Position numbers and translations under genes: made by a program. The notes under the pieces were generated by a model. That model saw only the letters and a list, made by a program, of their open reading frames with translations. It did no database searches and was not told the DNA's origin. Of a DNA stretch of 64,000 nt, positions 4,154 through 55,443 are shown one piece after another; the stretch's first letter is position 1, and the number at the start of each line of letters is the position of its first letter. The stretch spans positions 71,154 through 135,153 of the forward strand of contig JAGBEI010000014.1 of the NCBI GenBank assembly GCA_017937065.1, read 5' to 3'. The stretch comes from Clostridia bacterium (GTDB lineage Bacteria > Bacillota > Clostridia > Oscillospirales > QAKW01).

Positions 4154-6669
4154 CAGTCGTCCCTTTTCACCATCATTTCCTGATACTCCGCCATTGTCAT
4201 GATAACCTGTCTGGGCTTTGCGCCCTCGTACGGGCCGATTATACCCTTTTCCTCCATTGTGTCAATAATGCGCGCCGCTCTTGCGTAGCCCAGCGAGAAC
4301 TTGCGCTGCAAAACGGAGGTGGATGCCTTTCCGCTCTCGATGACAAATGCAACTGCCTGCCAGAACATCTCGTCCAGCTCCTCGCCGCCGTCGCGGTCTG
4401 CGGGCGCACTGCCGTCCTGCTTTGTATAGCTTTCCATGGCGTCGTTTGCGCTCTGGTCATAATCGGCGGTGCCGCAGTGGCGCTTTACGTATTCCACCAC
4501 CGTCTCGACCTCCTCGTCGCTGACAAAGCAGCACTGAATTCTCCGCGGAGAATTCATGGTTCTGCCCTTGAACAGCATATCGCCCTTGCCCAGCAGCTTT
4601 TCCGCGCCCGAACCGTCCAGAATGACGCGCGAGTCAATCTGCGATGTGACGGCAAACGCGATTCGGGAGGGTACGTTTGCCTTTATAAGCCCCGTTACAA
4701 CATTGACGGAGGGGCGCTGTGTTGCGATTATAAGGTAAATGCCGGCGGCGCGCGCCTTCTGACAGAGGCGCACAATATAGTCCTCCACCTCCTTGGCGCA
4801 GACCATCATAAGGTCGGCAAGCTCGTCAATGACAATTACAATCTGCGGCACCGTCTCGCACACGTCGGAATGCTTTTTGGCATAGGTATTGTAGCCGTGC
4901 ACGTTGCGTACGTTGACGCTGAAAAAGAGGTTGTAGCGCCGCTCCATCTCGTTTACCGCCCACTGGAGCGCGCCCGCTGCCTTTTTGGGGTTGGAGACGA
5001 CGGGGACGATAAGGTGCGGGATTTTGTTGTATACCTCCAGCTCCACCACCTTGGGGTCTATGAGTATCAGCTTTACGTCATTCGGGGACGCTTTGTACAG
5101 CAGCGACATAAGGATTGTGTTTATACATACCGATTTACCGGAGCCGGTAGCGCCCGCGACAAGCAGATGCGGCATGTCGGACAGGTCGCCGTATACGAGG
5201 TTGCCGGAAATGTCCTTGCCCAGTGCAACGGTTAGCGGGTTGCTGCTGCTTGTAAACTCGTCCGAGTCTAAAAGCTCTTTTATGTAAACCATGCTCTTTT
5301 TCTTGTTCGGTATCTCAATGCCGACCGCCGCCTTGCCGGGAATGGGCGCTTCAATTCTGATAGAGGTCGCCGCAAGCGACAGCGCGATGTCGTCCGACAG
5401 CGAGGTGATTTTGGAAACGCGCACGCCCTTGCTGGGCGCCAGCTCATAGCGTGTAACAATCGGTCCGATTGCCGCGCCGACCATTGTTGCCTCTATGCCG
5501 AAGTCACGCAGCGTTTGGATAAGCTTCTGCTCTGTCTGAGCAAGCTCGGTTTTGGAAATCCCGGTTGCCGCGCGCGGTGCTTCAAGCAGCGATGTGGGAG
5601 GGAAAATATAGCTTTCGTCTTTTTTTGCGCTTTCCGCAGACGCATGTCTGTCGGCGCGCACCGCGGTTTTTGCGGAGGAAAAAGCTGCGGGCGCAGAATC
5701 GGGGACTGCGGATAAGTTTTTGTCCGCTTTGTCCGCGTCATCAAAAACGCCGCTTCTGTCAATGTTTCCGACAACCATATCGGCGGTTGTTATGTATTCG
5801 TCGCGGTTTATGTCGTCATGCACAAAAAACGGCATGGGTGACGTCTGTTCAAACTGCGAGGTTTCGGTATTTTCTTCGTCCTGTACAAATATATCGGAGC
5901 GGGGCATGTCCCCCTGCCCTGATACGTCGTCCTGCTCGGAAAACTCTGTTTCCTCGTCCACGAAAATGTCTATTTTATTTTTCTTTTTCGGTTTTTCAAT
6001 ATGCGGCTTTACAACCTCCGGTTCATCGGGGTCGTGCTCCTCCCTTTCAAACGGAGCGCGCAGCTTTTTCCATATCTGATAAAGGGTAATGTCGAAAAAC
6101 GTGAGCGCACAGATAAGCGCCGCCGTAATAAACAGAATTGCAAAGCCGATTTTCGTCAGCAGGCAGATGAGCGGATACGCAAAAATTCCGCCCGCGATTC
6201 CGCCCGCACGGTTTACCATGTCGGGAATTCCCTTTATGAAGAACTGACCGAGGGAGAACGAGCCGAAATATTCACCGCTTTCAAAGAGGTAGCAAACGCC
6301 GCACAGCGACAGAACAAGCACAAGCCCCGTCCACAGCCGGGTAGGAGTGGACACGCGCCTGCGCTCTCTTGCAAGCTCGATTCCAAGCCACAGCGTCAGC
6401 ACGGGCAGGAGATAGGAAACATACCCGAATGCACCTCTGAACACCGTGCGCAGAAACGTGCCGAACGCGCCCAGAAAGTTGTGATATACCGAGAGAATGA
6501 GCAGCAGCGTCAGTGCGAAAAAGATGACTGACAGTACATTGTCCCGCACCTCTTTCCGAATTGGCTTTCGCGCAGCGCTCGTTTTTGCGCCGCCTGCCGC
6601 GGCTTTTTTACCAGCAGCAGACTTTGCTGCTGGTCTGTTTTTTGTTTTTCTTTCGTTTTTGACTGCCAT
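4153..6669 (-). CDS. ftsK: DNA translocase FtsK/SpoIIIE
   Basis: N-terminal TM helices, a long linker, Walker A GATGSGKS, and a C-terminal gamma winged helix (SVLQRKFSLGYARAARIID). Confidence 0.93.
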   Translation of the reverse strand: MAVKNERKTKNRPAAKSAAGKKAAAGGAKTSAARKPIRKEVRDNVLSVIFFALTLLLILSVYHNFLGAFGTFLRTVFRGAFGYVSYLLPVLTLWLGIELARERRRVSTPTRLWTGLVLVLSLCGVCYLFESGEYFGSFSLGQFFIKGIPDMVNRAGGIAGGIFAYPLICLLTKIGFAILFITAALICALTFFDITLYQIWKKLRAPFEREEHDPDEPEVVKPHIEKPKKKNKIDIFVDEETEFSEQDDVSGQGDMPRSDIFVQDEENTETSQFEQTSPMPFFVHDDINRDEYITTADMVVGNIDRSGVFDDADKADKNLSAVPDSAPAAFSSAKTAVRADRHASAESAKKDESYIFPPTSLLEAPRAATGISKTELAQTEQKLIQTLRDFGIEATMVGAAIGPIVTRYELAPSKGVRVSKITSLSDDIALSLAATSIRIEAPIPGKAAVGIEIPNKKKSMVYIKELLDSDEFTSSSNPLTVALGKDISGNLVYGDLSDMPHLLVAGATGSGKSVCINTILMSLLYKASPNDVKLILIDPKVVELEVYNKIPHLIVPVVSNPKKAAGALQWAVNEMERRYNLFFSVNVRNVHGYNTYAKKHSDVCETVPQIVIVIDELADLMMVCAKEVEDYIVRLCQKARAAGIYLIIATQRPSVNVVTGLIKANVPSRIAFAVTSQIDSRVILDGSGAEKLLGKGDMLFKGRTMNSPRRIQCCFVSDEEVETVVEYVKRHCGTADYDQSANDAMESYTKQDGSAPADRDGGEELDEMFWQAVAFVIESGKASTSVLQRKFSLGYARAARIIDTMEEKGIIGPYEGAKPRQVIMTMAEYQEMMVKRDD

Positions 6670-6685
6670 TTTTTCACCCTGAAAA

Positions 6686-7522
6686 TCAGTATATAAAGCT
6701 CATGACAATGCTGCCTGTACCCACAATCGCGCAGTAGTACACAAACCAGCCGAAGCGGTCTTTTCTTGTGACGTACTGAACAAGCTTTACCGCTAAAAAT
6801 CCGAAAACGGCTGCGGTGACAATGCCTATGATATAGGGCAGGATAAGCGTGCTGTCAATGCCTGAATTTACAATATCCCTGATGTTGAGGATATTTGCGC
6901 CGATGACGGCAGGAATGCCCAGTATGAATGAGAATTCAACCGCGGTCTCCCGTGTAAAGCCCATATTTATTCCCGCGGCGATGGTGGAGCCGCTGCGCGA
7001 CAGACCGGGCAGCGTCGCTATCATCTGGAACAGTCCGATTTTGAGCGCCTGGAACGGCGTCATGTCACGGATTTCCTTTTTGCCCTGCACGCTGTGGTCT
7101 GCGATAAACAGCAGTCCCGCCGTAACAAGCAGCATGATGCCGACGGGCAGAAGCCCTGTCATTTTGCTCTCAATCGTGTCGTTTACAAATACTACAAGCA
7201 CCAGCGGGAGAGTGGCGATTATCACGAATATGTCCATAAGCTGATACTTGTTGGCTTTTCTGAATTTGAATTTACCCGTAAAAATCTGACCGAGCATTCT
7301 GAAAAACTCAACAGCCATGCCCGCTATCGTTTTGCGGTATACTGCAAAAACCGCGATAAGCGTGCCCAAATGCAGCAGGATGTCAAAGGTCATGTCCCCC
7401 GACAGCTTTTCAAGACCCGGCAGAAACGTCTTGAAAATCACAAGATGTCCCGAGCTGGATATCGGCAGAAATTCCGCCAGTCCCTGTATAATTCCGAGTA
7501 TAACCGAGCTTAGTATTGTCAT
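6686..7522 (-). CDS. uppP: undecaprenyl-diphosphate phosphatase
   Basis: Polytopic protein with the LAEFLPISSSGH motif. The ATG at 7522 has a GGAGGG RBS; the ORF-track start at 7555 has none. Confidence 0.9.
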   Translation of the reverse strand: MTILSSVILGIIQGLAEFLPISSSGHLVIFKTFLPGLEKLSGDMTFDILLHLGTLIAVFAVYRKTIAGMAVEFFRMLGQIFTGKFKFRKANKYQLMDIFVIIATLPLVLVVFVNDTIESKMTGLLPVGIMLLVTAGLLFIADHSVQGKKEIRDMTPFQALKIGLFQMIATLPGLSRSGSTIAAGINMGFTRETAVEFSFILGIPAVIGANILNIRDIVNSGIDSTLILPYIIGIVTAAVFGFLAVKLVQYVTRKDRFGWFVYYCAIVGTGSIVMSFIY

Positions 7523-7595
7523 GTTTCCCTCCGAGTGCTTTACATATATAGTCATTATATCATATTAATTTATAATTTACTACTCTTTTTTAATG

Positions 7596-7624
7596 TTGAC
7601 TTTAATCAAATACAAATATATAAT
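7596..7624 (+). promoter_or_regulatory. sigma-A-type promoter for the GH20 gene
   Basis: TTGACT, 17-nt spacer, TATAAT. Confidence 0.55.
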
Positions 7625-7662
7625 AGAATTTAATATCTCTACCGAAAGGACATACCCTGAGA

Positions 7663-9150
7663 ATGCTTGACAATAATTTCTTTAAGGAGCCGATGCCCGT
7701 ACCGGCGCAGATATCGACGCTTGACGCTCCCGTGCAGATAGAGCCGATGCTTTCGTTTCACAGCGACGACCCTCTTATAAAAGGCGCGCTGATGCTTTTT
7801 ATCCGTGATTTTGAGCGCTATCACGGTGTTAAGATAAAGATAACCGACGCCGTCAAAGCCGCCGGATTTGTTCTTTTCCGAAAGAAGGCGGACGAGCTGA
7901 ACCTTGAAAATCCGTCTGCTTTTGAGGAATGTCGCGCAGAAAACTATTCGATTGTATCAGAAAACGGCACATTGGTTCTGAACTATATCGGGCTTAAAAG
8001 TCTTAACCACGCGCTCGCCGCGCTCCTGAGGCTTTCCGAGATAAGGGACGGCAAAATACTGTGGAATTACTCCGAGCTGCTGGACGGTCCGCAGTGCAAA
8101 TACCGCGCTTTTCATGTGGATTTGGGCAGGAATTTTCACAGTGTCGGCAGACTTTTCGAATATATAGACATGTGCTTTTGCTATAATCTCAGTCATCTGC
8201 ACCTGCATTTTAACGAAAATCAGAGCTACACCCTGCCGTCCAAGCTGTATCCCAAGCTTCCCACCAAGGATAGACACTATTCGTTTGAGGAAATACGCGA
8301 GCTTAACAGGTATGCGCTTCGCCGCGGGGTCAGTCTTGTGCCTGAGGTGGACATTCCCGGGCACTGCAATGCATTCGGCGCGGCGTATCCCAAGCTGTTC
8401 GGTACAAGCGGCGTCATCTGTCAGCACGAAGATTCAATGAAAGCGGTGCGTGAGATTGTTGATGAGGTCTGCACAATGTTTCCCTACTCCGAATATATTC
8501 ACGTAGGCGGCGACGAGGCGGATATAAAAAAGTGGACTGAGTGTGAAAAATGCCTTGCTTACTTTGAGACGGTTGACAAGGCGGCGGTGGACGCATTTAA
8601 AAACGGCGGGGACAGCCGTGCGCTTGCCGAGCGTATGCTTGCACACTTTATAACGGTTACCTGCGACGTTGTCTTAAAGGCGGGCAGAACTCCCATTGTG
8701 TGGGAGGGCTTTAATAAGTGCGTAAATGATTTTATATCCCGAAAAATCGTCGTTATGAGCTGGGAAAATTACTATCAGACGACAGACGAGCTTTTGGACG
8801 CGGGATTTAATATTATAAACTGCTCATGGAATCCTCTGTATATCGTGACTCCCAATAAGATGTGGAGTCCGTCGGAGATAGCGGACTGGGATATTTTCAA
8901 GTGGACGCCCGTTCATCCCGACTCCCCCTATATCGGACGTACGCTGGAGATTGACAAAAGCTTTGGAAAACAGATATGGGGCGCGCAGCTGCACGCCTGG
9001 GGCGACTGTCTTGCAAGGAAATTTGAGGATATTGAACAGGGTGTGGCAAAGGAGACGGAAAACATTGCAAATCGCCTGCCGGCGCTTTCACTGAACGTTT
9101 GGAACACTCCGGAGCAGAAGGAAAGGGCTCTGAAAAAGACGCGGCAATAA
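7663..9150 (+). CDS. glycoside hydrolase family 20 (beta-N-acetylhexosaminidase-like)
   Basis: RAFHVDLGRNF and HVGGDE catalytic-region motifs. No signal peptide is visible. Confidence 0.8.
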   Translation: MLDNNFFKEPMPVPAQISTLDAPVQIEPMLSFHSDDPLIKGALMLFIRDFERYHGVKIKITDAVKAAGFVLFRKKADELNLENPSAFEECRAENYSIVSENGTLVLNYIGLKSLNHALAALLRLSEIRDGKILWNYSELLDGPQCKYRAFHVDLGRNFHSVGRLFEYIDMCFCYNLSHLHLHFNENQSYTLPSKLYPKLPTKDRHYSFEEIRELNRYALRRGVSLVPEVDIPGHCNAFGAAYPKLFGTSGVICQHEDSMKAVREIVDEVCTMFPYSEYIHVGGDEADIKKWTECEKCLAYFETVDKAAVDAFKNGGDSRALAERMLAHFITVTCDVVLKAGRTPIVWEGFNKCVNDFISRKIVVMSWENYYQTTDELLDAGFNIINCSWNPLYIVTPNKMWSPSEIADWDIFKWTPVHPDSPYIGRTLEIDKSFGKQIWGAQLHAWGDCLARKFEDIEQGVAKETENIANRLPALSLNVWNTPEQKERALKKTRQ

Positions 9151-48567: not shown

Positions 48568-48735
48568 CGATTAATCCTCCGTTTATTGTTAAATGCAAAT
48601 GCTTTACAGGTATATTATAGCTTCAGGAAGATGTCTTTGTCTATAACCAAAATGTAAAAAATATATAAAATCTGTTTTACAGTGTGACAAATTTATGCTA
48701 TAATTCAAGCAAGTAAGATTTCAGAGGAAATGCAG

Positions 48736-50070
48736 ATGAAAAAAAACGACAGGACGGAAGTTTTGATAGAGGGCTACTCGTCCGAGGGCTACGGTGTGGC
48801 AAAGCCGGACGGATACGTTCTGTTTATTCCGGGCACCGTGTGCGGCGAGCGGGTGCTGGCTCATGTTTTAAAGGCAGGTAAAAGTTACGGTTATGCAAGG
48901 GCGGAAAAGCTGATTGAATTATCCGACCGCCGCGCAGAGCCCGGGTGCGCTGTCAGCAGCGTCTGTGGCGGCTGTTCGCTGTGGCACATGAACTATGAAG
49001 AGGAGCTCAGGTTTAAGCGCGAAAAAGTGCGCCGCGAACTGAAAAAAGCGGGAGCTGATGTTGATTTTGAAGCGGTGGTGCGCGGCAAAACCACGGGGTA
49101 CCGGAATAAGGCGCAGTACCCTGTGCGGGAGAAGGGCGGCAAAATCGCAGTCGGGTTTTACCGGCGTGCAAGCCATGATGTTGCCGAGGGCAGGTGCAGA
49201 ATTCAGCCCGATATATTCGGCAGTATTGCCGATGCGGTTCGGGATTATATGGAGCAAAACGGGATTTCGGCTTATAACGAACAGACGCTTTGCGGCACTG
49301 TTCGTCATATTTTTCTGCGCGCGTCGCATGATTTTTCACAGATTATGCTTTGCCTTGTGGTAAACGGCAGCTTTGATTTGAAGCAGAATTTTTCGCGGCA
49401 CATAACGGACAGGTTTCCGTCCGTCAGCACCGTGCTTATAAATTATAACAGTGAAAACACAAATGTAATTCTCGGCAGCCGCTTTGAAACGGTTTCGGGC
49501 AGCGGCACCGTGACCGACACGCTGTGCGAAAAACGCTTTGAAATATCCCCGCAGGCATTTTATCAGGTAAATCATGACGTGTGTCAGAAGCTTTACGGAA
49601 TAGTATCTGATTTTGCGGCGGCGGATAAAAATACGCGCGTTTTGGATTTGTACTGCGGAATAGGCACCGTCGGACTGTGCGCCTGTCCTGACGCGGGCGA
49701 GCTTGTCGGGGTCGAGATTGTACCGCAGGCGGTGGAAAACGCACGCAAAAACGCCGCTGTCAACGGAGCGGAAAACGCGCGGTTTTATGCGTGCGATGCC
49801 GCAGGAATTGCGGCACTTAATTTGGGCAGCTTTGACGTTATTATCGTAGACCCGCCGCGGCGCGGCTGCGATGCGGCAACGCTTGATTTTATTATTGAGT
49901 CCCGACCCTTGCGGCTTGTCTATATTTCCTGTGACTGCGCAACGCTTGCGCGGGATATCGCAATACTGCAAAAGGGCGGCTTTTCCGTTTCGCGTGCGGC
50001 TTTAGCGGATATGTTTCCGCGCACAAAGCACGTTGAGACGGTGGTGCTGATGACACGCAAAGACACTTGA
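48736..50070 (+). CDS. rlmD: 23S rRNA (uracil-C5)-methyltransferase, RlmD/RumA family
   Basis: TRAM-like N-terminus, a Cys cluster (C..CGGCS), the SAM fold, and VDPPRRG. The ATG at 48736 has better RBS spacing than the one at 48730. Confidence 0.85.
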   Translation: MKKNDRTEVLIEGYSSEGYGVAKPDGYVLFIPGTVCGERVLAHVLKAGKSYGYARAEKLIELSDRRAEPGCAVSSVCGGCSLWHMNYEEELRFKREKVRRELKKAGADVDFEAVVRGKTTGYRNKAQYPVREKGGKIAVGFYRRASHDVAEGRCRIQPDIFGSIADAVRDYMEQNGISAYNEQTLCGTVRHIFLRASHDFSQIMLCLVVNGSFDLKQNFSRHITDRFPSVSTVLINYNSENTNVILGSRFETVSGSGTVTDTLCEKRFEISPQAFYQVNHDVCQKLYGIVSDFAAADKNTRVLDLYCGIGTVGLCACPDAGELVGVEIVPQAVENARKNAAVNGAENARFYACDAAGIAALNLGSFDVIIVDPPRRGCDAATLDFIIESRPLRLVYISCDCATLARDIAILQKGGFSVSRAALADMFPRTKHVETVVLMTRKDT

Positions 50071-50122
50071 ACACAAAACCTGTCACCGACAGAAAAATAC
50101 AGAGCGCAGAGAGACAGAATAC

Positions 50123-53100
50123 ATGATTACAAAATCGAACTTCAGAGATGTACTAAAGGCACTTTCTTTTATAGAAATATCCGCCGATTTATATGAAAAG
50201 CGGTATGAGATATTTGACTGTTCAATAACTGTTGATTTCAAAAAAGAAAAAATCACATACCCGGAGGATAAGGGTATGCGGATAGACCGCCATACAACGG
50301 ATAATTTTTCCGCAAACGAGAATTTTGTTGTTTTGGAATGCGTGGACAGGCTTTTATCAAAGGGCTATCGACCCGAGCACATTGAGCTTGAAAAGAAATG
50401 GTCTTTGGGACATATGATTTCCGGCGGAGAGGACAGCGGTTTTGCCGATATATGCGTTTACGGCAACGACGGCAAGGTTCTCTTTATCATAGAGTGCAAA
50501 ACCGCCGGAAGCAAATATGCAAGGGAATACGGCAAAATCCTGAGCTACGGCGGGCAGCTGTTTTCATATTGGCAGCAGCAGCGCAGCTGTAAGTTTATTA
50601 TTCTCTATGCCTCTGATTTTGCGGACGGCAGGCTGTTTTATACAACCGACAGCGTGGATTGCAGCGACGACCGGAATATCCTTGCCCTTGCCGAGAAAGA
50701 CGATTCTATTCTGCTCTACAAAAATGCACATGCCGTAGAGGATTTATACGCCGTATGGGATGAAACGTACGAAAGGCGTTTTTGCGGTGACGTCGTTTTC
50801 CGCGATGACTCCGTCGCATATAAAATCGGCGCGAAACCGCTTCGCAAGGGCGATCTCAAGGATATCAGAGAAAACGATAAGATTGTCAATAAATTTGAAG
50901 AAATTCTGCGCCATAACAGTGTTTCCGACAAGGAAAACGCCTTTAACAGACTGATTGCCCTTTTCATCTGCAAGCTCGTTGATGAAATTCAGAAGGGCGA
51001 TAACGATGAGGTGGAATTTCAGTATCGGGTAGGAACCGACACATACGAATCTCTGCAGGACAGACTTCAGCGCTTACATAAGGAGGGCATGGAGAAGTTT
51101 ATGCGCGAGGAGATTTTCTATGTTCCGGATACCTATGCCGAGGAATTGGTACAGCAGTACTGCGGGTATAAGCGCAGGAATATGATTGAAGACCTGAAAA
51201 GGACACTGCGCATTCTGAAGTTTTACACAAATAATGACTTTGCCTTTAAAAATGTTCATAATGAGGAGCTGTTCTATCAAAACGGTAAAATAGTTGTGGA
51301 AGTGGTGAAGCTTTTTGAGCGTTACCGAATTATCGACTCTTCCGATGTGCAGATGCTCGGTGATTTGTTTGAGCAGCTGCTTAATAAAGGCTTTAAACAA
51401 AATGAAGGACAGTTTTTCACGCCTATTCCGATTACAAGGTTTATCTGGGACAGTCTTCCCGTTACAGGGACAGTCAAAAAGGAACGCGGTGCGGAGTATC
51501 CGAAAATAATAGACTATGCCTGCGGCGCAGGTCATTTTTTGACGCAGGGCGTGGAGGCTGTCGATGCAGCTGTTAAAAAGACCAATCCCTCTGCCGAAAA
51601 CGGACACTCCTGGATAGAGAACAGGGTTTACGGTATAGAAAAAGACTACCGCCTTGCCCGCGTGTCGAAAATATCCCTGTTCATGCACGGCGCGGGAAAT
51701 GCAAATGTGATATTCGGCGACGGTCTTGAAAATTATTCCGACAAGGGAATCGTGCCGGGCAGCTTTGACATTCTTGTTGCCAACCCGCCTTACGCGGTTA
51801 AGGCGTTTAAGAGCCATTTGAAGCTGAAGAACAATTCGTTCAGGCTGCTGAATAAAATCACAAATGACGGTTCTGAAATCGAGACGCTTTTTGCCGAGCG
51901 TATTTCACAGCTGCTAAAGCCCGGCGGTATAGCCGCGGTTATTCTGCCATCTTCAATACTGAGCAACGATTCCGGCAGTTATACGGGAGCGCGAGAGGAG
52001 CTTTTACAGCATTTTCGTATTTGTGCAATTACCTGCTTCGGCAGTAAAACCTTCGGTGCGACGGGGACGAATACGGTTGTTTTGTTTCTGCAAAAGCTTG
52101 ATGAGACGCCCGCGCGCTTTAAATTGGCGGAGGACAGCGCAGATGCAGTTCTTTCCGGCAGATCCCTTGAGAATTGGGAGGACGGGGAAATATATTATTC
52201 CTACCTTGCACAAGTTGAGTGTGACAGGAAATTTTACAGAGCCTTAATCAAAGAATCAAAGCCGTACGGCTATTTCGCAAACGATAAATACCTGAAAAAC
52301 TATACCGCTGCGTTTGAGGAGCTTGCGGATGTAAAAGCCAAGAAAAGGCAGAAAACATTTAAGAACATGAGCGCCGGGGAGCAGGCAAAATGGATGAATC
52401 AGCGTTTCTATGCCTTTGTTAAGGAAAGAGAAAAGGAAAAGCTGATGTATTTTGCCATGGTTTACAAGCAGACGGTTTTGATTGTTACAGCGCCTGCGGA
52501 CAATGCAAAACAGAAAGCGTTTCTCGGCTATGACTGGAGCAACCGCAAGGGCAATGAGGGTATTGTTATCAATACGCCCGGAGGAATGCTGTATGACGAC
52601 AGCGACCGCTTTGCAGACGATACGCTTTCCGGCATGATACGTGATTCGTTTGCCGGTAAGCTGAGATCGCTGCCGAAATATGAGCAATACTATCGCTATG
52701 CAAATCTGCGTGATATGATTGATTTTTCACGGGTTGAATTTAACAAGGCGATAAAGACTGCCGTCAAAAATAGGCTTCAAAGCAAATACCCTCTTGTACC
52801 TTTGAAAACATTATTGCTGGATATTATCGGAAATACCACTAAGACGGCAAATACAGATACCCTGCCGAGCGGGAGTATCCCTGTCGTTTCGCAAAATACG
52901 GATTCGTTAATAAGCGGCTATGTTGAAACAAGCAGACCTATAGAGGACTTGCCCGTTATATTGTTCGGTGATCATACCTGTTGTTTCAAGTATATTGATT
53001 TTCCGTTTGTAAGGGGCGCGGACAATACGCAGCTTTTAAAATTCAACGACACCGTTATTCCGAAATATATGTATTACGTGCTGCCGGAAATTGAAATCGA

Positions 53101-53806
53101 AAATAAGGATAAATACGAAAGACATTTCAAGTATTTAAAACAGGCGCTTGTCCCCGTTGCGCCGCTCGATATTCAGCAGAAAATCGTTGACGAGTGTGCC
53201 TTAATAGACGAGGAGTATAACGCTGTGCGTACAGCTATTGAAAAACATCGGGAAAGCATTGAAAAACTTTTTGCCGAGGCTGCAGCGTCAGGCGGGACAA
53301 CGGTAAGGCTTGACTCTTCGGAATTATTCGCGCTCGGTATAGGAAAGCGGGTTTTGAAAAAGCAGATTACGGATACAGGCATACCTATTTACAGTGCAAA
53401 CGTAAACGAGCCTTTCGGATATATAGAGGATGCTGTGTTTGATGATTATTCTGTCGGCACCGTTATCTGGGGGATTGACGGCGATTGGGATGTAAGCTAT
53501 ATCCCGCCGCAGACTCCGTTCTATCCGACAGACCACTGCGGAACCCTGCGTGTTTTATCCGACGGAATAAACGCGCATTATGTTGCTTTCGCTCTCAAGG
53601 CGGAGGGCATACGGCAGAGATTTACCCGCTCAAACCGTGCGTCAGCCGACCGTGTGAAGGCGTTGAGATTAACGCTGCCCGATAAAAAAGTACAGGACGA
53701 TTTTACGGCAAAGGCAGAAAAAGCAGATACTGAAATCGCAAAGCTCAATGCAAGGCTTGCGGCTGTCAACGCGGCAAAACGGGATGTGCTGAAAAAATAT
53801 TTGTGA
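50123..53806 (+). CDS. single-chain restriction-modification-specificity enzyme (Type IIB/IIG-like)
   Basis: N-terminal PD-(D/E)xK (FADICVY...FIIECK). Gamma-class N6-adenine methyltransferase with motif I DYACGAGHFL and motif IV NPPY. The C-terminus holds two HsdS-like target-recognition domains separated by helical spacers. Confidence 0.8.
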   Translation: MITKSNFRDVLKALSFIEISADLYEKRYEIFDCSITVDFKKEKITYPEDKGMRIDRHTTDNFSANENFVVLECVDRLLSKGYRPEHIELEKKWSLGHMISGGEDSGFADICVYGNDGKVLFIIECKTAGSKYAREYGKILSYGGQLFSYWQQQRSCKFIILYASDFADGRLFYTTDSVDCSDDRNILALAEKDDSILLYKNAHAVEDLYAVWDETYERRFCGDVVFRDDSVAYKIGAKPLRKGDLKDIRENDKIVNKFEEILRHNSVSDKENAFNRLIALFICKLVDEIQKGDNDEVEFQYRVGTDTYESLQDRLQRLHKEGMEKFMREEIFYVPDTYAEELVQQYCGYKRRNMIEDLKRTLRILKFYTNNDFAFKNVHNEELFYQNGKIVVEVVKLFERYRIIDSSDVQMLGDLFEQLLNKGFKQNEGQFFTPIPITRFIWDSLPVTGTVKKERGAEYPKIIDYACGAGHFLTQGVEAVDAAVKKTNPSAENGHSWIENRVYGIEKDYRLARVSKISLFMHGAGNANVIFGDGLENYSDKGIVPGSFDILVANPPYAVKAFKSHLKLKNNSFRLLNKITNDGSEIETLFAERISQLLKPGGIAAVILPSSILSNDSGSYTGAREELLQHFRICAITCFGSKTFGATGTNTVVLFLQKLDETPARFKLAEDSADAVLSGRSLENWEDGEIYYSYLAQVECDRKFYRALIKESKPYGYFANDKYLKNYTAAFEELADVKAKKRQKTFKNMSAGEQAKWMNQRFYAFVKEREKEKLMYFAMVYKQTVLIVTAPADNAKQKAFLGYDWSNRKGNEGIVINTPGGMLYDDSDRFADDTLSGMIRDSFAGKLRSLPKYEQYYRYANLRDMIDFSRVEFNKAIKTAVKNRLQSKYPLVPLKTLLLDIIGNTTKTANTDTLPSGSIPVVSQNTDSLISGYVETSRPIEDLPVILFGDHTCCFKYIDFPFVRGADNTQLLKFNDTVIPKYMYYVLPEIEIENKDKYERHFKYLKQALVPVAPLDIQQKIVDECALIDEEYNAVRTAIEKHRESIEKLFAEAAASGGTTVRLDSSELFALGIGKRVLKKQITDTGIPIYSANVNEPFGYIEDAVFDDYSVGTVIWGIDGDWDVSYIPPQTPFYPTDHCGTLRVLSDGINAHYVAFALKAEGIRQRFTRSNRASADRVKALRLTLPDKKVQDDFTAKAEKADTEIAKLNARLAAVNAAKRDVLKKYL

Positions 53807-53869
53807 TAAAAAGGTTTAAAGGTCTTGCTGAGGGTATTTTGATAGGGACTGAAAACGGAGGATATGAAA

Positions 53870-55408
53870 ATGCGCTCTGAACAAAAAGGAAATGTAAAAA
53901 ACAGCGTCGGTCGCCTGGCACTGGCGGCGCTTGCAATTATCGCACAAATAGTCTGGCTTGTCTATATTGCCTTAAAGCTGAATAAATATTCGACCGTAAT
54001 TTCGCTTTGCAGCAGTCTTATTGCGCTGCTGCTGGTGCTTAAAATTTACAGCAAGCGTACCAATTCCGCCTTTAAAACGCTGTGGATAATTTTGATTTTG
54101 GTGTTTCCCGTTATGGGGATAAGCTTTTACTTTCTTTTCGGCAACAAGCATGCAACGTCATATATCCGCCGTAAGTTTTCGTCGCTTCACGATGCGCTGT
54201 TTTCGGGGCTTTGCGATGACAGCGGGGCGTTAAGCGAGCTGTCTGCGGATGACCGCTATGCGGCAAATCAGTTCCGGTACCTGTCCGGGCACGAGGGCTT
54301 TCCCGTGCGCGCGGGTACGTCCGTAAGGTTTTTTGCGGACGCCGCCGACGGATTTGAGGCTCAGCTTTGCGATATTGCGCGTGCGGAGAAATATATTTTT
54401 ATGGAATATCATGCCGTTGAGGACATGGAGTCCTTTTCGCGGCTTTTTGAGATACTGGCGCAAAAGGCGGCAAACGGGGTGGAGGTCAGGCTTCTTTACG
54501 ACGATGTGGGAAGTATCGGCTTTGTCAATTTCGGGTTTGTCAAAAAAATGAGACAGAGCGGAATACGCTGCAAGGTGTTCAATCCCGTTCTGCCCGTGCT
54601 TCAAATATTTATGAATAACCGTGACCACAGAAAGATTACGGTTATTGACGGCAGGGTTGCCTTTACGGGCGGGTATAATCTTGCGGACGAATATTTCAAT
54701 ATCACCCACCCCTACGGAAGATGGAAGGACACGGGGCTGAGGCTGGAGGGCGACGCAGTTCACAGTCTGCTTGCCATGTTTCTTGAAATGTGGGACTGTA
54801 CCGAAAAGTCTGCCGAGAATTTTGAAAAGTATTTTTGCAATAACGTAAGTCTGCCGCAGGACGGTTTTGTTGCGCCGTATGCCGACAGTCCGCTGGACAA
54901 CAGCTGCGTAGGCGAGAACGTGTACCTGAATCTTATAAAAAGCGCCGCTCATTACCTGTATATTACAACCCCCTATCTTATAATCAGCGACGAGATGAAC
55001 AGGGAGCTCACGCTTGCGGCGCAGCGCGGCGTCGATGTGCGCATAATTACGCCCGGAATCCCCGATAAAAAGCTGATTTACAGGGTGACGCGCTCCTACT
55101 ATCCCGCGCTTGCACGAGCGGGGGTGCGCATTTTTGAGTATACGCCGGGATTTATGCACGCCAAGCAGATGCTGGCGGATGGGAAAACTGCGGCGGTCGG
55201 GACGATAAATCTTGATTACCGCAGTCTGTATCATCATTTTGAAAACGGAGTTCTCATGCACGGCTGCAGGGCTGTAAACGATATTCTTCGGGATTTTGAG
55301 GACACCTTTGCAAAGTGCTGTGAGGTTACGGAAAAATACAGTCAGGACAGATTTGCCGTGACGCGGGGAATAGACTGTATACTGCGGCTTGCAGCTCCGC
55401 TTTTGTAA
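53870..55408 (+). CDS. cls: cardiolipin synthase
   Basis: Two N-terminal TMs and two HKD motifs (HRKITVIDG, HAKQMLADG). The ATG at 53870 is 7 nt after GGAGGA. Confidence 0.92.
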   Translation: MRSEQKGNVKNSVGRLALAALAIIAQIVWLVYIALKLNKYSTVISLCSSLIALLLVLKIYSKRTNSAFKTLWIILILVFPVMGISFYFLFGNKHATSYIRRKFSSLHDALFSGLCDDSGALSELSADDRYAANQFRYLSGHEGFPVRAGTSVRFFADAADGFEAQLCDIARAEKYIFMEYHAVEDMESFSRLFEILAQKAANGVEVRLLYDDVGSIGFVNFGFVKKMRQSGIRCKVFNPVLPVLQIFMNNRDHRKITVIDGRVAFTGGYNLADEYFNITHPYGRWKDTGLRLEGDAVHSLLAMFLEMWDCTEKSAENFEKYFCNNVSLPQDGFVAPYADSPLDNSCVGENVYLNLIKSAAHYLYITTPYLIISDEMNRELTLAAQRGVDVRIITPGIPDKKLIYRVTRSYYPALARAGVRIFEYTPGFMHAKQMLADGKTAAVGTINLDYRSLYHHFENGVLMHGCRAVNDILRDFEDTFAKCCEVTEKYSQDRFAVTRGIDCILRLAAPLL

Positions 55409-55443
55409 AGCGGAGCTTATTGAAAACGGAGGAATAATTATTT

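Follow-up and report, generated by a model that had tools for sequence, protein, structure and literature searches.

The window analysed here is a stretch of 64,000 nucleotides of contig JAGBEI010000014.1, from an uncultured Clostridia bacterium. At 50123..53806 on its forward strand there is a complete open reading frame (ORF) with an ATG start, encoding 1227 amino acids. It belongs to a same-strand run that can be written rlmD-RM-cls-birA, where RM is the restriction-modification (R-M) gene discussed in this article. We suggest that the gene encodes an apparently intact single-chain restriction-modification-specificity (R-M-S) enzyme of Type IIB (also classed as IIC or IIG), of the kind represented by AloI, PpiI, TstI and CjeI. 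We put the probability of this reading at roughly 0.88. A preliminary description, made from the letters of the sequence without database searches, had proposed three functional regions in one polypeptide and an AloI/PpiI/TstI-type architecture. Profile searches, structural comparison and direct alignment agree with it. The ORF is as it was described, and every motif quoted for it can be located in the translation: FADICVY at residues 107-113, FIIECK at 121-126, DYACGAGHF at 464-472, NPPY at 554-557, LDIQQKIVDE at 1015-1024 and KAEKADTEIAKL at 1197-1208. Table 1 lists the features of the gene.

Table 1. Features of the R-M-S gene, with positions in the protein and in the window
Feature	Residues	Window position	Strand	Basis
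Complete 1227-residue gene, read as single-chain R-M-S (Type IIB/IIG)	1-1227	50123..53806	+	ORF, PDLC03624
PD-(D/E)xK endonuclease domain	1-215	50123..50767	+	BsaXI endonuclease alignment, weak Pfam, model
Catalytic codons	E90; D109; E124; K126	50390-50392; 50447-50449; 50492-50494; 50498-50500	+	
Multi-helical connector between nuclease and methyltransferase	~240-405	50840..51337	+	model, conservation
Gamma-class N6-adenine DNA methyltransferase	410-660	51350..52102	+	Pfam, BsaXI alignment
Methyltransferase motifs	FFTP 431-434; motif I DYACGAGHF 464-472; motif IV NPPY 554-557	motif I 51512-51538; motif IV 51782-51793	+	
Helical knob-like region and linker to specificity module	661-880	52103..52762	+	model, Foldseek, TstI
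Target recognition domain 1 (TRD1)	881-1012	52763..53158	+	PADLOC Specificity profiles
Conserved helical region 1 (CR1)	~1013-1057	53159..53293	+	model helix, TstI motif
Target recognition domain 2 (TRD2)	~1058-1187	53294..53683	+	PADLOC profiles, L004 remnant, model
Conserved helical region 2 (CR2) and stop codon	~1188-1227	53684..53806	+	model helix, TstI motif

The whole protein, residues 1-1227, matches positions 1-1269 of the 1271 in the PADLOC profile PDLC03624 (REase_MTase_IIG) with an E-value of 8.7e-300. This is a REBASE-derived profile for fused restriction-methylation enzymes, whose seed members are not named. Since it covers the protein from end to end, the fused architecture is already covered by an existing family model, and more than 7,500 homologues were detected. 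By sequence, the best relative in the PDB is the RM chain of BsaXI (8w0p, E 3.4e-34), which aligns in separate stretches within the nuclease, the connector and the methyltransferase.

The alignment with BsaXI is most informative in the nuclease. When positions are counted through the HMMER alignment to 8w0p, E73, D90, E105 and K107 of BsaXI stand opposite E90, D109, E124 and K126 of our protein. The BsaXI cryo-EM study (PMC11997821) found by alanine mutagenesis that these four BsaXI residues are essential for cleavage, and describes them as shared throughout Type IIB enzymes. When the query and 106 full-length homologues are aligned with MAFFT (n=107), E90, D109 and K126 are invariant (107/107) and E124 is present in 106/107. 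Hence the N-terminal PD-(D/E)xK core that had been proposed by eye does align in a profile search, with its catalytic E...D...ExK set intact. Pfam by itself gives weak, sub-threshold matches to HSDR_N_2 and HSDR_N at residues 79-173; the N-terminal 259 residues alone match the PADLOC IIG profiles at E 1e-73. The alpha/beta core of the domain is modelled by AlphaFold2 with a predicted local distance difference test score (pLDDT) of 85-93. The model covers residues 28-1227, was built from a 51-sequence alignment and has a mean pLDDT of 75.

The polypeptide continues beyond the nuclease with the gamma-class N6-adenine methyltransferase, as expected from the preliminary description, with motif I preceding NPPY. 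Pfam finds N6_Mtase at residues 410-660 (E 1.9e-29) and Eco57I at 544-642 (E 1e-11), and residues 392-660 align to BsaXI RM with a domain E-value of 2e-26. FFTP, D464, C467 and the four residues of NPPY are invariant in 107/107 sequences, and A469 is present in 105/107. The connector between the two catalytic domains is all-helical in the model and is the best-conserved stretch of the protein (71-86% mean identity to the query in the 107-sequence alignment); residues 268-325 align with part of the BsaXI connector. Beyond the methyltransferase, the knob-like region forms a helix bundle at about residues 687-780 with pLDDT 86-96. A knob is predicted for every single-chain R-M-S enzyme that has been modelled (PMC11997821).

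The last 350 or so residues had been described as a complete HsdS, and three lines of evidence agree on this. First, PADLOC Type I Specificity profiles match residues 880-1053 at E 1.6e-31 to 3e-19 and match the isolated second half at E 7e-6 to 5e-5. A Pfam search of the isolated C-terminal 367 residues gave no Methylase_S match; the orthologous remnant ORF of the second half in a close relative, L004, does match Pfam Methylase_S (E 1.9e-4). Second, the model shows two alpha/beta domains split by a 41-residue helix (1015-1055), the second of them followed by a C-terminal helix of 39 residues (1188-1226). In a Foldseek search of the PDB the BsaXI RM chain comes first (E 4e-19, about 880 aligned columns, range 879-891), and the matches include whole HsdS folds: 1ydx (397 columns, target of 374 residues), 1yf2 (425/425), 3okg, the S subunit of PacII and that of BsaXI. 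Third, there is a direct comparison with TstI, for which the C-terminal 495 residues were taken from supplementary Figure S1 of PMC4027205. Residues 765-1227 of the query (463 residues) are co-linear with the C-terminus of TstI to the last residue (E 1e-29, about 26% identity). The framework common to both proteins consists of FLGYxWSxxKGxEGI and DFSRVxFxKxI in the knob-like region and linker, PLDxQxxIVDECxxID in CR1 and the terminal VLKKYL in CR2. The C-terminal 350 residues are thus a complete TRD1-CR1-TRD2-CR2 module by profiles, AlphaFold model and co-linear TstI alignment.

The two TRDs are also where homologues part company with the query. Mean identity is 46-90% over residues 1-880 and falls to 7-22% over residues 881-1227; TRD1 is hypervariable, with 14-22% identity among homologues. 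One homologue (P0002) has the core (82%) and TRD1 (73%) in common with the query and lacks its TRD2; another (P0003) has the core (78%) and TRD2 (78%) in common and lacks its TRD1; two more (P0005 and P0006) have the core alone in common. As judged from these comparisons, TRD1 and TRD2 reassort as independent modules among homologues, and such reassortment has been shown experimentally for the AloI/PpiI/TstI family (PMC4081073). We considered reading the half-site specificities from TRD similarity and set this aside: the only solved relative of the query TRDs is TRD1 of EcoR124 HsdS, and the match (E 0.004) is too weak. A recurrent short form of about 1062 residues (P0057, P0063, P0066 and P0104) corresponds to query residues 1 to about 1050 and is devoid of TRD2 and CR2. 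These single-TRD forms might be dimers acting on symmetric sites, like HaeIV, or they might be truncations.

Taken together, every testable defining feature of a single-chain Type IIB enzyme is found in this protein, apart from two that could be followed in part, namely how the knob superposes and whether homology to a characterised member extends over the full length. Several points weigh against our interpretation. The direct comparison with a characterised single-chain member, TstI, is limited to the last 40% or so of the protein. Two parts of the model are of low confidence, namely TRD1 (pLDDT 35-65, compared to 81-92 for TRD2) and the connector (41-65). Two-sided cleavage, oligomeric state and cofactor dependence are all carried over from relatives. 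Finally, the orthologue is frameshifted or largely deleted in sister lineages, meaning that the gene is dispensable, and it could be inactive here for reasons that are invisible in the sequence.

If the interpretation is correct, the enzyme would work much as its relatives TstI, AloI, BcgI and BsaXI do (PMC4027205, PMC4081073, PMC11997821). Each of its two TRDs would recognise one half of a bipartite, asymmetric site. With S-adenosylmethionine as donor, one adenine in each half-site would be N6-methylated, the two on opposite strands, which would protect host DNA. An oligomer, a tetramer in the case of TstI, would bridge two unmodified sites, and double-strand cuts would be made at fixed distances on either flank of the site. 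No partner methyltransferase, specificity subunit or translocase would be needed, and the specificity would be set by two swappable TRDs unlike those of TstI.

What is the history of this gene? An identical protein in the same context occurs on three public contigs, and the ORF is intact there and in the window. At least 24 contigs represent a sister lineage (L084-L087) in which gene order is fully conserved between proS and fabG, and the orthologue sits at the same place. Its nucleotide identity to our gene is 85.6%, compared to 80-88% for the flanking genes, and a single 1-nucleotide deletion at the position of window 51475 splits it into ORFs of 462 and 771 amino acids. By the Nei-Gojobori method, the R-M gene and the sister orthologue differ by a synonymous divergence (dS) of 0.58-0.76, with a ratio of nonsynonymous to synonymous divergence (dN/dS) of 0.08-0.125; for rlmD, cls, birA, proS, recG and prsA these values are 0.60-0.88 and 0.04-0.12. 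Within the R-M gene, dN/dS is 0.08 in the nuclease part (the N-terminal 450 codons) and 0.125 in the S part, like the housekeeping neighbours.

Other relatives have kept less. In L004 (11317-11973, the counterpart of window 50046-53806) there remain only residues 1064-1227 (TRD2-CR2), at 83% identity, in a 150-residue ORF with a TTG start. Window 50046-53335 (3.29 kb) has been swapped there for about 186 bp. These 186 bp lengthen the rlmD ORF to 507 amino acids, with the tail SKGEVDSKKIRVEFSLEDMDMSEFQDGATYPQIKEYVLEHTGLKVSNLYISQIKRKCGIEVSESVF. The tail has a match of 54% identity on pAPRE01, a conjugative plasmid of Anaerococcus prevotii, in a part that carries no annotation and lies near genes for a recombinase and a MobQ relaxase. 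The tail may be the scar of a mobile element that was once at the 3' end of rlmD. In the more distant L005-L007, rlmD is followed directly by birA (e.g. L007 11330-11953); the R-M gene and cls are both missing, and the two may have been acquired or lost together. In L001, a contig whose R-M gene is 100% identical to ours, positions 6341-8501 (window ~53864-56400) give fragmented gene calls, with coverage of 51% for cls and 59% for birA. Either local divergence or an artefact of assembly could account for this.

The preliminary description had suggested a one-gene defence insertion. The gene is solitary and slightly AT-richer than its surroundings, and to that extent the suggestion holds, but it is not a recent arrival, having co-diverged with its flanks under purifying selection (85.6% nucleotide identity, dS 0.58-0.76). 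Recent horizontal insertion is ruled out by the match in divergence between gene and flanks, by the absence of flanking repeats around the R-M gene and by the absence of close relatives on plasmids or phages, where the best match has 28% identity. The preliminary description had also proposed to check whether the gene recurs between the same two neighbours in relatives. It is present and identical on the three contigs and present with a frameshift in L084-L087, but it is a remnant in L004 and absent together with cls in L005-L007. Since its divergence and dN/dS match those of its flanks, and given these states in relatives, we regard the gene as an old resident of an interval that varies between lineages; it has been inherited vertically and kept under constraint, and it is being lost in some lineages.

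The frameshift in the sister lineage deserves a further comment. In the gene at L084 6634..10316 the missing nucleotide falls directly 3' of an A_AAA_AAG heptamer (L084 7986-7992, window ~51466-51475), which is the sole in-frame slippery heptamer in the N-terminal ORF. The zero frame stops 10 codons past the heptamer, giving the 462-residue product, and a -1 slip there would give a stop-free reading of 1227 amino acids that is co-linear with the window protein. By default this should be seen as recent pseudogenisation; an old pseudogene is disfavoured by the low pairwise dN/dS (0.08-0.125). A speculative suggestion prompted by the sequence is that programmed -1 frameshifting might set the ratio between a 462-residue nuclease-only product and the full-length R-M-S enzyme. 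We think this improbable. A downstream stimulatory RNA structure was not found at the L084 site (z = -0.10), and diversity within the lineage (1-5 differences per 3683 nucleotides) is too low for testing constraint. To our knowledge, programmed -1 frameshifting has not been described for any Type IIB enzyme.

The surroundings of the gene in the window are those of a housekeeping region. Upstream lies rlmD (48730..50070), encoding an RNA methyltransferase of the RumA/RlmD type with TRAM and tRNA_U5-meth_tr domains, and further upstream are genes for a PrsA-like peptidyl-prolyl isomerase and an M23 peptidase. Downstream is cls (53864..55408), for a cardiolipin synthase with two PLD domains, and then birA. 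The statement that the gene has no partners stands for the window: its immediate neighbours are rlmD, cls, birA and prsA, and tblastn found no paralogous M, S or R fragments elsewhere in the 64-kb window. The ten largest other ORFs of the window are unrelated genes of ordinary cellular kinds, encoding FtsK, RNase Y, a P-type ATPase, an SbcC-like protein, transporters, a glycosyl hydrolase, an S-layer-homology phosphoesterase and one protein with no Pfam match. The AT-richness noted earlier is real and modest: the GC content of the R-M gene is 45.4%, compared to 53.0% for rlmD, 49.7% for cls and 49.1% for the window. Its GC content at third codon positions, 0.51 against 0.53-0.60 in nine neighbouring genes, is narrowly the lowest of the ten.

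A scan for promoters and terminators gave counts close to those of shuffled controls (about 1.5-1.8 standard deviations above their mean) and nothing in the 52-bp and 57-bp gaps that flank the gene. The best promoter-like site lies upstream of rlmD (48676-48704). Because the gaps have no such sites, the R-M gene may be co-transcribed with its neighbours, as a weak suggestion. Phase variation or a shufflon was considered and rejected: the window contains no silent TRD cassettes, long homopolymers (at least 8 A/T or at least 6 G/C) are missing, and no meaningful repeats, inverted or direct, surround the gene. One 33-nucleotide direct repeat with 79% identity is shared by rlmD (49824-49856) and the R-M gene (51757-51789). 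It encodes the motif IV region of S-adenosylmethionine-dependent methyltransferases (GSFDVIIVDPP and GSFDILVANPP) and probably reflects motif-level similarity rather than recombination. Elsewhere in the window, co-linearity with L001 and L084, which carry a gene for a 60-residue small acid-soluble spore protein (PF00269), leads one to expect such a gene at about 57140-57320 on the reverse strand, between hyp172 and recG. If present there, it would imply a spore-forming host.

Could the protein be something other than a Type IIB restriction enzyme? The alternative that survives best is that it is in effect an orphan DNA methyltransferase, which methylates a bipartite site for epigenetic or regulatory ends while its nuclease is silent or functionally lost. 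The locus is decaying in relatives, by the frameshift and by deletion of residues 1-1063, and the gene stands among housekeeping genes with which it may be co-transcribed. TstI methylates unmodified sites at rates comparable to cleavage (PMC4027205). However, the four catalytic nuclease residues are intact here and conserved family-wide, and the N-terminal 450 codons, with dN/dS 0.08, are constrained as much as the methyltransferase part. We therefore consider this alternative unlikely.

Less probable still is a Type IIG enzyme of the MmeI or BpuSI kind, with a continuous asymmetric site and a one-sided cut. The PADLOC label does read Type IIG, and BpuSI (3s1s) and DrdV (7lo5) are among the fold matches. 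Yet such enzymes have a single recognition domain (PMC11997821), whereas the query has two TRDs with long CR helices, matches whole HsdS folds and can be aligned with the C-terminus of TstI, which cuts on two sides. In Foldseek, the BsaXI score is about ten orders of magnitude better than that of BpuSI. Least probable of all is that the protein is the methyltransferase part of a multi-gene defence system with partners elsewhere (BREX PglX, MADS MAD2 or a Type I HsdM-S fusion). In its favour are the HsdM-like methyltransferase domain and partial NCBIfam matches to MAD2 (82 bits) and PglX (39 bits). Against it, these matches cover the shared methyltransferase core only and fall far below the curated cut-offs of 720 and 500 bits, no BREX, MADS or HsdR genes adjoin the gene or occur among the ten largest other ORFs, tblastn of the 64 kb shows no paralogous R-M fragment, and a protein with its own nuclease and S module does not require a partner. 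Membership of BREX, MADS or Type I is ruled out by the NCBIfam cut-offs, the context and the lack of a translocase.

With the single-chain Type IIB reading retained, what is new here? The architecture and the family are already known. The novelty, of modest interest, is likely to be a previously uncharacterised bipartite specificity. The gene adds to the candidate Type IIB enzymes one whose recognition site is probably new. Type IIB enzymes are employed in 2b-RAD-type reduced-representation sequencing, and exchanging their TRDs allows new specificities to be engineered. The locus also shows, for a clade of gut Clostridia, what has become of a solitary R-M gene whose chromosomal site is fixed: it is found intact, frameshifted, reduced to one TRD or absent. 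Nothing here changes what is presently known about how such R-M systems work.

We know of several systems with which the protein can be compared. It resembles TstI, AloI and PpiI in size class (1227 residues compared to 1251 in TstI), in the order of nuclease, gamma-class methyltransferase and two-TRD S module, in being encoded by a solitary gene and in having TRDs that reassort (PMC4081073). TstI itself is a homotetramer. Neither TRD of the query is related in sequence to the TRDs of TstI, and therefore the site is not CAC-N6-TCC. The hosts also differ, being Thermus or Acinetobacter in those cases and an uncultured gut Clostridia lineage in ours.

The closest solved structure is that of BsaXI, an (RM)2S heterotrimer (8w0p/8w2p). 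Its nuclease, connector and methyltransferase align with ours, its knob appears to do so too, and the E/D/E/K residues of the catalytic set occupy identical positions at a sequence identity of about 20%. Unlike our protein, BsaXI keeps its S subunit separate and carries a long 'paddle' at the C-terminus (PMC11997821); in the AlphaFold2 model of the query, the part preceding the S module shows no evident antiparallel helix pair like the paddle. Because the S module is fused, the ratio of R, M and S is 1:1:1 here, compared to 2:2:1 in BsaXI.

The Type I HsdM-HsdS systems (EcoKI, EcoR124 and the HsdS proteins of M. genitalium and M. jannaschii) share with our protein an HsdM-like N6_Mtase and the TRD1-CR1-TRD2-CR2 order, and its TRD1 falls into TRD classes common to both (E 1.6e-31). 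The difference lies in the HsdR helicase/translocase. Neither Pfam nor NCBIfam finds a helicase, ResIII or SNF2 domain in the sequence, and the only helicase nearby is RecG, so that the exclusion of Type I in the preliminary description is upheld. With a nuclease fused to the N-terminus instead, cleavage is expected at fixed positions near the site and not at distant random positions, as in Type I.

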